Shown here in pieces: positions 7,739 to 62,568 of a stretch of 64,000 nucleotides of DNA; the first letter of the stretch is position 1; the number at the start of each line of letters is the position of its first letter. A program made the position numbers and the translations under genes. Source of the DNA: Candidatus Aenigmatarchaeota archaeon (GTDB lineage: Archaea > Aenigmatarchaeota > Aenigmatarchaeia > Aenigmatarchaeales > Aenigmatarchaeaceae); contig JAZDKZ010000001.1 in assembly GCA_043802485.1 (NCBI GenBank), forward strand, positions 1-64,000, given 5' to 3'. The notes below the pieces were generated by a model. That model ran no database searches, was not told the DNA's origin, and saw only the letters and a program-made list of their open reading frames with translations.

Positions 7739-7827
7739 GCCCTCGTAGCTCAGCTTGGATTAGAGCACTTGCCTCCTACGGAAACGGGGAAAGCAAGGGG
7801 TCGTGGGTTCAAATCCCATCGGGGGCG
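7739..7827 (+). tRNA. tRNA-Arg(CCT) with 13-nt intron at 37/38 (7779-7791)
   Basis: Acceptor GCCCTCG/CGGGGGC, anticodon stem CTTGC/GCAAG, TTCAAAT T-loop; BHB helix CTCC/GGGG. Confidence 0.93.
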
Positions 7828-18457: not shown

Positions 18458-18568
18458 AGCCCCGTCGTCTAGCGGTCAAGGATGCAAGGCTTTGGAGTTG
18501 TCTCTAAAGAACTGATTAAAGGATGACGAAGTAACCTTGAGACACCAGTTCGAATCTGGTCGGGGCTA
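18458..18568 (+). tRNA. tRNA-Gln(TTG) with 38-nt intron at 37/38 (18496-18533)
   Basis: A1-U72 acceptor AGCCCCG/CGGGGCT, anticodon stem CAAGG/CCTTG, BHB helix CTTT/GAAG. Confidence 0.93.
18496..18533 (+). ncRNA. Putative intronic half box C/D guide (D'-C') for U34 of tRNA-Gln
   Basis: Guide CTCTAAAG 18502-18509, box CTGA 18512-18515, box ATGACGA 18523-18529. Confidence 0.6.
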
Positions 18569-25547: not shown

Positions 25548-25651
25548 GCCGAGATCGCATAATCTGGTATTGCGCTAGATCTCAACCTGAGAGGCGAACC
25601 TGGAAAGCTAGTTTCCGCAAGGATATGGGGGTTCAAATCCCTCTCTCGGCG
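25548..25651 (+). tRNA. tRNA-Ser(GGA) with 20-nt intron at non-canonical position 30/31 (25579-25598)
   Basis: Removing ATCTCAACCTGAGAGGCGAA restores CTAGC-CTGGAAA-GCTAG; long variable arm; BHB helix CGCT/GGCG. Confidence 0.9.
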
Positions 25652-49258: not shown

Positions 49259-49331
49259 TTGTTTTTTTCAGCACAAGATAGAGCATGATTTCTATAAGCT
49301 TTAAAAGGTTAAAAACATTTAAAGAGTTTAT

Positions 49332-49486
49332 GCCGACGTGGCAGAACCAGGTTAATGCGCTAGACTTGAGGACATATGATTAGATGGCTTGACTCCGAAT
49401 GCGGCGAAATGAGGAATGATAGGCGAAATGATGTCTAGAAATCTAGTGCCCGCAAGGGCTTGCAGGTTCAAATCCTGCCGTCGGCG
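49332..49486 (+). tRNA. tRNA-Ser(TGA) with 70-nt intron at 37/38 (49371-49440)
   Basis: GCCGACG/CGTCGGC acceptor, CTAGA/TCTAG anticodon stem, GCCC-GCAA-GGGC variable arm, G73. Confidence 0.92.
49371..49440 (+). ncRNA. Intron-encoded double-guide box C/D sRNA
   Basis: C ATGATTA 49376-82, 12-nt guide, D' CCGA 49395-98, C' ATGAGGA 49409-15, 12-nt guide, D ATGA 49428-31, terminal stem GACA/TGTC. Confidence 0.8.
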
Positions 49487-49522
49487 CTTTTTCTTTAAGA
49501 AACTCAAAAACCAATAAGGTCT

Positions 49523-54541: not shown

Positions 54542-54673
54542 GCGGAGGTAGCCAAGTCTGGTCAAAGGCGCAGGACTTAAGATAACTTAAGTTTTGATGC
54601 AAGTTCGTCTTGCGGTGATAAGAAATCCTGTCTCTTAGTGGGTTCGTCGGTTCAAATCCGGCCCTCCGCACCA
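54542..54673 (+). tRNA. tRNA-Leu(TAA) with 43-nt intron at 37/38 (54582-54624), CCA encoded
   Basis: GCGGAGG/CCTCCGC, CAGGA/TCCTG anticodon stem, long variable arm, BHB helix CTTA/TAAG. Confidence 0.93.
54582..54624 (+). ncRNA. Putative intronic half box C/D guide (D'-C') for U34 of tRNA-Leu
   Basis: Guide CTTAAGTT 54586-93, box TTGA 54594-97, hairpin GCAAG/CTTGC, box GTGATAA 54615-21. Confidence 0.62.
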
Positions 54674-58262: not shown

Positions 58263-58336
58263 GGGCCCGTAGTATAACTTGGTCAGTATTTACGCTTGGG
58301 GTGCGTAAGATCGGAGTTCAAATCTCCGCGGGCCCA
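58263..58336 (+). tRNA. tRNA-Pro(GGG), no intron
   Basis: GGGCCCG/CGGGCCC, TACGC-TTGGGGT-GCGTA, TTCAAAT. Confidence 0.93.
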
Positions 58337-62292: not shown

Positions 62293-62568
62293 TGCAGAGG
62301 AACGCCTTCAGTGGGTGCCAAGAAAACCATGAAGCTAACCCCATCAATCTTCTCCACTTCGCGACCCTATAAACGTCACTACCATAACTTAGTAGTGCTC
62401 GGTTCCCCGCCTCCTACGGTTCGCTATAACAGTAACTCTACAGGACGAAGCTTCTCAGTCGATCGACAGGACCTCACGGATCCTTGACATCGCCTTTAGG
62501 CTTCGATTGCGCCATGAACCGGATTTGCGCTTATAGGGAACCGGTAGCTCCCCAATCTATCCCCTGCA
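62293..62568 (-). ncRNA. ffs: SRP RNA (7S)
   Basis: Terminal helix GCAGGGGA/UUCCUCUGC; Alu domain with kissing loops ACCGG/CCGGU; helix 8 GUAG-GAGG-CGG-GGAA-CCG-AGCA-CUAC; TTTAAATA 22 nt upstream; T-run downstream. Confidence 0.88.

Follow-up and report, generated by a model that had tools for sequence, protein, structure and literature searches.

A circular box C/D RNA forms the intron of an archaeal tRNA-Ser(UGA) gene and most likely guides modification of helix 44 in 16S rRNA

The window analyzed here is a stretch of 64,000 nucleotides (nt) from a Candidatus Aenigmatarchaeota archaeon, comprising the first 64 kb of contig C1 in a genome assembly of 769 kb (7 contigs, 89% complete; G000 hereafter, with other G numbers denoting related genomes). 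It contains a tRNA-Ser(UGA) gene with a 70-nt bulge-helix-bulge (BHB) intron. The intron is excised as an RNA ring, has the layout of a double-guide box C/D RNA, and most likely carries a trans-acting guide for 16S ribosomal RNA (rRNA). An initial annotation, prepared from the sequence alone, had described the intron as a complete double-guide box C/D small RNA (sRNA); its stem, box, and spacer strings are all present where it placed them, and they make up the full double-guide anatomy with two 12-nt spacers. The features of the gene and its intron, all on the forward strand, are as follows.

49332–49486, +, tRNA-Ser(UGA) gene (Rfam tRNA model at 46.9 bits, the anticodon loop holding a long insert)
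49332–49370, +, exon 1, with the anticodon TGA at 49367–49369 and G37 at 49370
49371–49440, +, BHB intron and box C/D RNA, 70 nt, delimited by ring-junction RNA contigs
49371–49374, +, 5' strand of the terminal stem, GACA, pairing with 49432–49435
49376–49382, +, box C, ATGATTA, read from the sequence
49383–49394, +, D' guide, GATGGCTTGACT, a 12-nt spacer in which 49384–49393 pairs with 16S 1359–1368
49395–49398, +, box D', CCGA, read from the sequence
49399–49408, +, D'–C' linker, ATGCGGCGAA, 10 nt, holding the conserved motif CGG[CA]G
49409–49415, +, box C', ATGAGGA, read from the sequence
49416–49427, +, D guide, ATGATAGGCGAA, a 12-nt spacer read from the sequence
49428–49431, +, box D, ATGA, read from the sequence
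49432–49435, +, 3' strand of the terminal stem, TGTC, from the minimum free energy (MFE) fold
49435–49438, +, 3' strand of the BHB central helix, CTAG, drawn by hand against tRNA positions 32–35 (CTTG, 49365–49368) with one U-U mismatch
49441–49486, +, exon 2, with a long variable arm and discriminator G (Rfam tRNA model)

With the anticodon taken as TGA, the intron occupies the canonical 37/38 position, and the 3' half of the gene is 89% identical to the tRNA-Ser(CGA) gene of the same genome. ARAGORN missed the gene under default settings. In intron mode, the program called a tRNA-Leu(GAG) with a 60-nt intron, an assignment ruled out by the ring junction described below, by the discriminator G, and by the similarity to other tRNA-Ser genes. 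Related tRNA-Ser(UGA) genes at L016, L017, L018, L166, and L168 (G020, G013, G006, G007, and G009, respectively) carry an extra intron of approximately 30–35 nt near tRNA position 32/33.

Excision of the intron was evident from Logan contigs of four RNA libraries (X16 and X20, from one groundwater study; X17, from a wetland study; and X6) aligned on positions 49300–49520. X16, X20, and X17 each contained one 100-nt contig that spans exactly 49371–49440 with 0 mismatches and joins 49440 to 49371. The contig is 100 nt long because a 70-nt circle in a 31-mer graph is written out as 70 + 30 nt. Word depths of this contig in the three runs were 117.6, 265.6, and 5.2, and exon coverage in the same runs was low or nil, figures that cannot rank RNA abundance. 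X20 held a second ring-junction contig, a variant from a slightly different relative. X6 yielded only an unspliced contig (49300–49483, 4 differences), which may be DNA or precursor and is uninformative either way. The intron is excised at the predicted sites, 49371 and 49440, and persists as a circle. A BHB drawn by hand consists of a central helix, CTTG/CTAG, with one U-U, the bulges AG|G and AA|A, and outer helices provided by the anticodon stem and ACAT/ATGT. Each cut falls 2 nt into a 3-nt bulge, as is characteristic of a BHB, and the implied cuts coincide exactly with the ring junction. Relatives have CAAG in place of CTAG, giving a perfect 4-bp CTTG/CAAG helix. The MFE fold of the window locus did not draw the BHB. 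The spliced product is the only tRNA-Ser(UGA) of the genome.

Archaeal C/D RNAs have the terminal box consensus RUGAUGA (C) and CUGA (D), which form a kink-turn (K-turn) of tandem G-A pairs beside the closing stem. The MFE fold (RNAfold) pairs 49370–49374 with 49432–49436, and the resulting GACAT/ATGTC stem is the closing stem expected for the excised RNA. The features of a K-turn are present at the level of sequence: the TGA...TGA cores are kept, position 6 of box C (T) can pair with position 1 of box D (A), and the GACA/TGTC stem flanks boxes C and D with a 3-nt bulge. A 10-nt direct repeat, GGCGAAATGA, occurs at 49403–49412 and 49422–49431, 19 nt apart, and the D spacer with box D looks like a duplicate of the linker and the start of box C'. 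What places this RNA above chance is that all 10 aligned relatives conserve its guide, that it matches the 16S rRNA of its own genome over 10 bp, and that it occurs as a ring.

That match involves the D' guide. The rRNA genes of this genome lie on contig C6 (16S, C6:221220-222700; 23S, C6:3824-6975). Guide positions 2–11 (49384–49393) form 10 of 10 Watson-Crick pairs with 16S 1359–1368 (GTCAAGCCAT), and T49390, the fifth base upstream of box D', lies opposite A1362 at the +5 position. A 10-bp duplex at guide positions 2–11 is the geometry used by archaeal C/D ribonucleoproteins (RNPs). Ranked by forced-register duplex energy, this target is first among 4,611 windows of the 16S and 23S rRNAs (-15.0 versus -12.4 kcal/mol for the next), and it is also the top 16S window in G001, G002, G006, G013, and G035. 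By our own arithmetic, a 10-bp match would be expected by chance at a rate of approximately 4611/4^10, or about 0.004. In an alignment to an annotated Escherichia coli 16S copy (1541 nt), A1362 corresponds to position 1407 and C1356 to position 1401; in the conventional 1542-nt numbering, we take these to be A1408 and C1402. The initial annotation had predicted, from consensus rRNA, that this guide complements helix 44 and that the +5 rule points to the equivalent of A1408, and had named nine pairs with the organism's own rRNA as the minimum for its proposal to stand. The own 16S bears this out with 10 bp, one fewer than the 11 expected. For neither guide did the host tRNA supply one of the 6 best of 4,808 tRNA windows, and no cis-target in the host or other tRNAs stood out for the D' guide. 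Taken together, the anatomy, the own-16S match, and the encoded proteins described below indicate that the tRNA intron most likely hosts a trans-acting rRNA guide, as had been suggested at the outset. Separately, the 16S of this genus has T at 1354 and 1358, the equivalents of E. coli C1400 and C1404, which are normally very conserved decoding-center bases. The T at 1358 is common to all 7 relatives' 16S rRNAs examined, and the T at 1354 is shared only with G001 and G002.

Conservation was assessed in an alignment of 10 tRNA-Ser(UGA) genes of the family and order, which are 68–97% identical to that of the window. The D' guide core ATGGCTTGACT is invariant in all 10, and the terminal stem ACA/TGT is kept in 8, with GCA in G020 and a different sequence in G035. 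Relatives have ATGA plus three varying bases as box C and either ATGA or GTGA as box D. TGA stands at the box-C position in each of 113 non-redundant members of the guide family delineated below. Box D' is CTGA in 8 of the 10 aligned genes and CCGA only in G000 and G003, the same two genomes whose box C' is ATGAGGA; ATGAAGA is found in six. C' position 5 and D' position 2 pair as A-U in some members of one genus (G001 and G002, ATGAAGA/CTGA) and as G-C in others (G000 and G003, ATGAGGA/CCGA). Among the 113 non-redundant members, C at D' position 2 is accompanied by G at C' position 5 in 16 of 19 cases; where D' position 2 is T (n = 94), C' position 5 is T in 46, A in 25, G in 21, and C in 2. 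The members are kin and their counts are not independent, but CCGA is present in several families. On these comparisons, the C'/D' deviations covary, as would be expected of an internal kink-loop (K-loop). The claim that every box deviation is compensatory thus survives in part: the comparison with relatives that had been proposed as a check revealed the A-U to G-C switch in C'/D', whereas compensation in C/D is not firm, as C position 6 and D position 1, a U-A pair in the window, are unpaired in G006, G013, and G017.

Beyond the close relatives, the D' guide identifies a family spread across the phylum. A search of 371 genomes of the phylum for the 13-mer GGCTTGACTCYGA, which spans the guide and box D', gave matches in 127 (including 46 of the 98 of high quality), nearly always a single match per genome; a reversed control pattern gave approximately 12 hits. 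We classified the 134 matches by simple flank motifs. Seventy-nine lie in tRNA-Ser(UGA) introns, with a TGA-type anticodon loop upstream and a T-arm downstream, 33 in the 3' part of the 16S gene, and 1 in another tRNA. Inspection by eye showed that the 21 unclassified matches include tRNA-Ser introns that are truncated, approximately nine chance coding hits, and two 16S introns (L238 and L239) located just upstream of helix 44. The 16S-hosted copies (L111, L127, L135, L178, L189–L191, L193, and L197–L234), in which the guide is followed by CTGA and TGATGAG, are housed in introns or inserts of that gene. Their sites number at least three, one in the region of helix 45, one between GGGGCTAA and AAGTCG..., and one upstream of helix 44. 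A broader 15-mer scan listed at least 119 matches, mostly chance bacterial ones, and 6 of the 9 archaeal or box-flagged loci examined were family members. Candidates for an intron-less tRNA-Ser(UGA) in relatives were rejected as other isoacceptors or contig ends.

The second guide and the linker differ by host. All 32 non-redundant 16S-hosted copies have a second guide of the GGAGGTG type, the complement of the 16S 3' end (ATCACCTCC). Of the 81 tRNA-Ser-hosted copies that have a C' box, 13 carry a second guide of the GGAGGTG type, 8 the window's type, 7 the CCTTTAAG type, and 53 another type or none. The linker motif CGG[CA]G occurs in 63 of 81 tRNA-Ser-hosted members (window 49401–49406; relatives L166–L299) versus 0 of 32 16S-hosted members. 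An accessory contact might form between the linker GGCGG and 16S CCGCC, which lies immediately 5' of the D' target, with a register that varies. In distant families (L253–L298), many long tRNA-Ser introns have box C' followed directly by the BHB strand, with neither a D guide nor a D box, and a (C/T)(A/T)GA-type box stands near the intron 5' end, ahead of a hairpin and box C. Judging from this arrangement, the ring formed from such an intron could be a circularly permuted C/D RNA with its D spacer across the ligation junction.

The closest described counterpart is sR13 of Nanoarchaeum equitans, a free-standing sRNA verified by RNA-seq, with 45,100 reads and the predicted targets "NP" and "16S A1395" (PMC4644070, supplementary file 1). 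According to the entries for sR13, it has the D' guide core GGCTTGACT followed by CTGA, a double-guide layout with short spacers, and the same 16S stretch as target (A1395 in its own numbering). It differs in being encoded by itself and in having a second guide, AGGAGGTGATA, complementary to the 16S 3' end, whereas the window RNA is a tRNA intron with non-consensus boxes C, D', and D and another second guide (ATGATAGGCGAA). Both RNAs come from DPANN-type archaea, and the sR13 host genome is likewise reduced. The window RNA has the family's hallmark, the D' guide GGCTTGACT with C(T/C)GA directed at the helix-44 A, and lacks the second guide of the GGAGGTGA type for the 16S 3' end. This sequence likeness places the window intron in the sR13 lineage, as a member living in a tRNA intron with its second guide apparently replaced.

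Assignment of a target to the D guide is less straightforward. Its best rRNA window is 16S 1352–1363 (ACTGCCTGTCAA), with 9 contiguous pairs, including 2 G-U, over 1354–1362, C1356 at +5, and an energy of -13.0. This helix-44 window ranks first in G000, G001, G002, and G006 (-13.0, -13.0, -14.6, and -16.8, versus -12.5 to -12.7 for the runner-up), which are all four of the genomes that have both this D-guide type and a 16S. It lies 6 nt from the D' target; by our own arithmetic, a position within 20 nt would arise by chance approximately 1% of the time. Dennis et al. (2015; PMC4644070) describe sRNAs with two guides aimed at sites close in rRNA secondary and tertiary structure. Eight of 10 relatives retain the D guide core TGATAGGC but differ in the three bases adjoining box D. 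The D spacer of G035 is another one, with a 10 of 10 match to 16S ACTTAAGGGA. Simple pattern searches of the genome recognized neither a free-standing guide against the C1402 site nor a GGAGGTGA-type guide beside box motifs. From these comparisons, we put the chance that the D guide targets 16S C1356 (C1402) in helix 44 at roughly even, it being the likeliest target. The D guides of the sR13 family appear to be real but to turn over, and we propose that the D guide is the younger, less constrained, and evolutionarily labile of the two.

The genome encodes the proteins that such an RNA would require. A profile search recovered fibrillarin (PF01269, 269 bits), Nop5 (PF01798, 179 bits), and L7Ae (PF01248, 93 bits), with the Nop5 and fibrillarin matches approximately 1 kb apart on C5; the initial annotation had made its proposal depend on fibrillarin and Nop5, and both are encoded. 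The splicing endonuclease EndA (PF01974, 96 bits) and the ligase RtcB (PF01139, 575 bits) are present as well. We propose that tRNA-Ser(UGA) is transcribed with its 70-nt BHB intron, that the endonuclease would cut at 49370|49371 and 49440|49441, and that the ligase would join the exons and close the intron into a 70-nt ring. These enzyme roles follow established archaeal splicing, with both genes present and the ring junction observed. In the ring or a linear form, boxes C and D would form the K-turn on the GACA/TGTC stem and boxes C' and D' the internal K-loop, upon which L7Ae, Nop5, and fibrillarin would presumably assemble. The D' guide would pair with 16S 1359–1368 in the 5' strand of helix 44, and by the +5 rule fibrillarin would methylate the 2'-OH of A1362, the equivalent of E. 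coli A1408 in the decoding site. Less certainly, the D guide may pair with the overlapping segment 1354–1362, with C1356 at +5. We assign a probability of about 0.78 to this explanation as a whole, namely a ring-borne intron RNA of the sR13 family that guides methylation of 16S A1362, with the role of its D guide uncertain.

Several observations weigh against this explanation. Methylation at A1362 and protein binding are predictions. RNA libraries can contain DNA and contig depth is no measure of abundance, yet the genomic arrangement cannot yield the ring junction. Boxes C (ATGATTA) and D (ATGA) deviate from consensus, and the C/D pair is absent from the three relatives named above. An Rfam search of the intron found no family above its cut-off, the best match being sR38 at 10.7 bits versus 50. 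A relaxed regular expression for the four-box layout matched 3 times in the 769-kb genome versus a mean of 0.53 in 30 block shuffles, such that the layout by itself is weak evidence and is not significant genome-wide. For the D guide, the helix-44 pairing requires 2 G-U pairs, and the runner-up at 16S 213–224 is a near tie. A tRNA-Phe window reaches -13.8, which leaves three roughly equal sites in G000; we rejected the tRNA-Phe window as a target because that value is no better than noise. The proposed targets of the two guides overlap, so both could not pair with one rRNA molecule simultaneously, and the D guide of G013 has degenerated into an A-rich sequence that lacks a target (best window, -4.1).

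The alternatives concern mostly the D guide. The RNA might be a single-guide RNA in which only the D' guide (16S A1362) works and the D spacer is structural filler from an internal duplication, with box D serving the K-turn. The two copies of GGCGAAATGA make the D module look copied from the linker/C' module; the spacer is labile, given the variable bases by box D, the A-rich string in G013, and the different guide in G035; and the 53 of 81 tRNA-Ser-hosted members noted above have no recognizable D-guide class. Filler would not be expected to have the D' target 6 nt away from its best window among 4,611 (the approximately 1% coincidence noted above), to pair at 10 of 10 positions (2–11) in G002 and G006, or to be replaced in G035 by a guide with a perfect 10-bp 16S match, and we consider this reading unlikely, though it has some weight. 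We find it rather less probable that the D guide works at 16S 216–224 (GCCTATCAT), with C217 at +5, instead of in helix 44. There, nine contiguous Watson-Crick pairs without G-U form in G000 (-12.7 kcal/mol), the site is conserved in G001, G002, G006, and G013, and a conserved guide T finds a perfect partner where helix 44 offers only a wobble; but this duplex begins at guide position 4, so that the target falls at its second base pair, the site comes second in all four genomes, and G013 retains it despite a decayed guide. Guide–target covariation gave no decision between these two 16S candidates. The target that the initial annotation had assigned to the D guide, approximately C2558 in helix 92 of the 23S A-loop, can hardly be right. 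That idea came from a consensus sequence, and nothing from this genome favors it: the own strand, TTCACTGGTTAA, offers 6 Watson-Crick and 3 G-U pairs over 12 positions, with 3 mismatches, the site is absent from the 8 best rRNA windows for this guide, and the target string given there differed from the true guide complement. The prediction failed because it was consensus-based and the A-loop helix stem of this genome is diverged (23S, about 2590–2620, GGTGTTCACTGGTTAAAAG).

Two further alternatives question the function of the RNA more broadly. An RNP acting solely as an antisense chaperone could hold helix 44 of nascent 16S open, with methylation absent or incidental. A role as chaperones has been put forward for archaeal C/D sRNAs by Dennis et al. 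(2015; PMC4644070), both guides and the CGG[CA]G linker could contact the same short 16S stretch, and the second guide of relatives complements the 16S 3' end. Against this, the exact +5 register and the 10 bp at positions 2–11 are requirements of methylation, and fibrillarin is retained in a 0.77-Mb genome, leaving a chaperone-only role improbable. Alternatively, the intron might be an ordinary, jobless one whose conserved parts reflect splicing or hitch-hiking and whose ring is a short-lived splicing by-product. Archaeal tRNA introns are known to circularize (PMC7994747), and contig depth cannot prove the stability of the ring. Such an intron would have no reason to carry an invariant 11-mer outside the BHB, a guide identical to that of a free-standing, abundantly expressed N. 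equitans sRNA and found again in 16S introns (33 of 134 matches), a perfect 16S complement in every genome tested, and covarying C'/D' boxes, and we regard it as very improbable. The explanation we favor is therefore that of an intron-borne guide directed at A1362.

Archaeal tRNA introns are usually regarded as functionless. Where PMC7994747 treats intron-located archaeal C/D RNAs, it names only the tRNA-Trp intron, which acts on its own tRNA. As described there for Haloferax volcanii and for sR50 of Pyrococcus, the pre-tRNA-Trp intron is likewise an anticodon-loop BHB intron that is itself a double-guide C/D RNA, but its guides act on C34 and U39 of the host tRNA, whereas those of the window match 16S and have no good match in their own tRNA. 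Outside tRNA-Trp, the 66-nt intron found in elongator tRNA-Met from N. equitans, also a DPANN-type archaeon, harbors a stable C/D-like RNA (Randau 2012, PMC3491384); it lies in a different tRNA, and the passage concerned describes it as "potentially guiding RNA methylation" and names no rRNA target. Covalently closed C/D sRNAs occur in Pyrococcus and N. equitans (PMC7994747, PMC3491384); in these accounts they derive from free-standing transcripts, whereas the ring of the window is closed upon intron excision. Vertebrate intronic box C/D small nucleolar RNAs (snoRNAs), as outlined in PMC7994747, are trans-acting rRNA guides released from introns of unrelated host genes. They reside in spliceosomal introns and are freed by debranching and exonucleases; in the window, a protein endonuclease makes the cuts and the entire ring-closed intron is the guide RNA. 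Searches of the open full-text literature turned up no account of a tRNA-Ser intron, or of rRNA introns in these archaea, carrying a C/D guide directed at rRNA. Intron-borne C/D guides are thus known as such; new here are the aim at rRNA in trans, the host tRNA, the circular form, and the sharing of the guide with rRNA introns.

The most likely reading, a trans-acting guide for the decoding site supplied by a tRNA intron, would hold in extremely reduced genomes that still keep fibrillarin, Nop5, and L7Ae, and helix 44 is most conserved in the part that contains the predicted target nucleotides. A guide function would provide a selective reason for retaining the intron, and the distribution of the family suggests that guide modules move between tRNA and rRNA introns. 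If the reading is true, the tRNA intron would carry its guide much as eukaryotic introns harbor snoRNAs, and the origin of intron-hosted snoRNAs could be studied in a simple system made up of a 70-nt ring, a single tRNA gene, and one defined 16S site. A wider scenario, offered tentatively and at somewhat less than even odds, is that the guide is a mobile passenger of protein-spliced introns, housed throughout the phylum in the tRNA-Ser(UGA) intron or at one of at least three 16S intron sites and free in Nanoarchaeum. The introns would be kept as the sole gene for a guide that construction of the decoding center requires and that covers the C1402 and A1408 equivalents, and the RNP would form on the ring. 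On this scenario, archaeal tRNA and rRNA introns would be true host genes for trans-acting rRNA guides, an ancestral or independent counterpart of intronic snoRNAs.

The flanks of the gene carry two candidate transcription signals. A sigma-70/terminator scan was also run on the locus, but it uses a bacterial model that does not apply to archaea.

49300–49306, +, candidate archaeal TATA box, TTTAAAA, 26–32 nt upstream of the tRNA 5' end, which we take to be such from the archaeal promoter consensus
49487–49496, +, T-rich run, CTTTTTCTTT, a likely transcription stop read from the sequence

Other introns of this genome show related features. Several tRNA introns have in common the motif (C/T)TGAT...AAGATGA, which resembles a D'/C' K-loop; those considered were window 18458–18568 (tRNA-Lys TTT), C5:11839-11953, C6:52886-52997, C6:86439-86548, and C7:101949-102056. 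In the 35-nt intron of tRNA-Trp(CCA), TTGGAG complements anticodon-loop positions 32–37, with C34 opposite the fifth base upstream of TTGA; judged by its sequence, this intron is possibly a minimal version of the tRNA-Trp Cm34 guide. Two related 16S genes contain inserts: one of 104 nt in G002 (L160), following the position equivalent to 1159 of G000, and one of 77 nt in G006 (L159), which follows position 723 and repeats a portion of the adjacent exon (GGGATTAGATA). Besides tRNA-Ser(UGA), the window contains five further tRNA genes, four of them intron-bearing (listed loci include 7739–7827, 25548–25651, 54542–54670, and 58263–58336), and ARAGORN without its intron option recovers 2 of the 6 window tRNA genes. 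An archaeal signal recognition particle RNA is encoded at 62294–62567 on the reverse strand.

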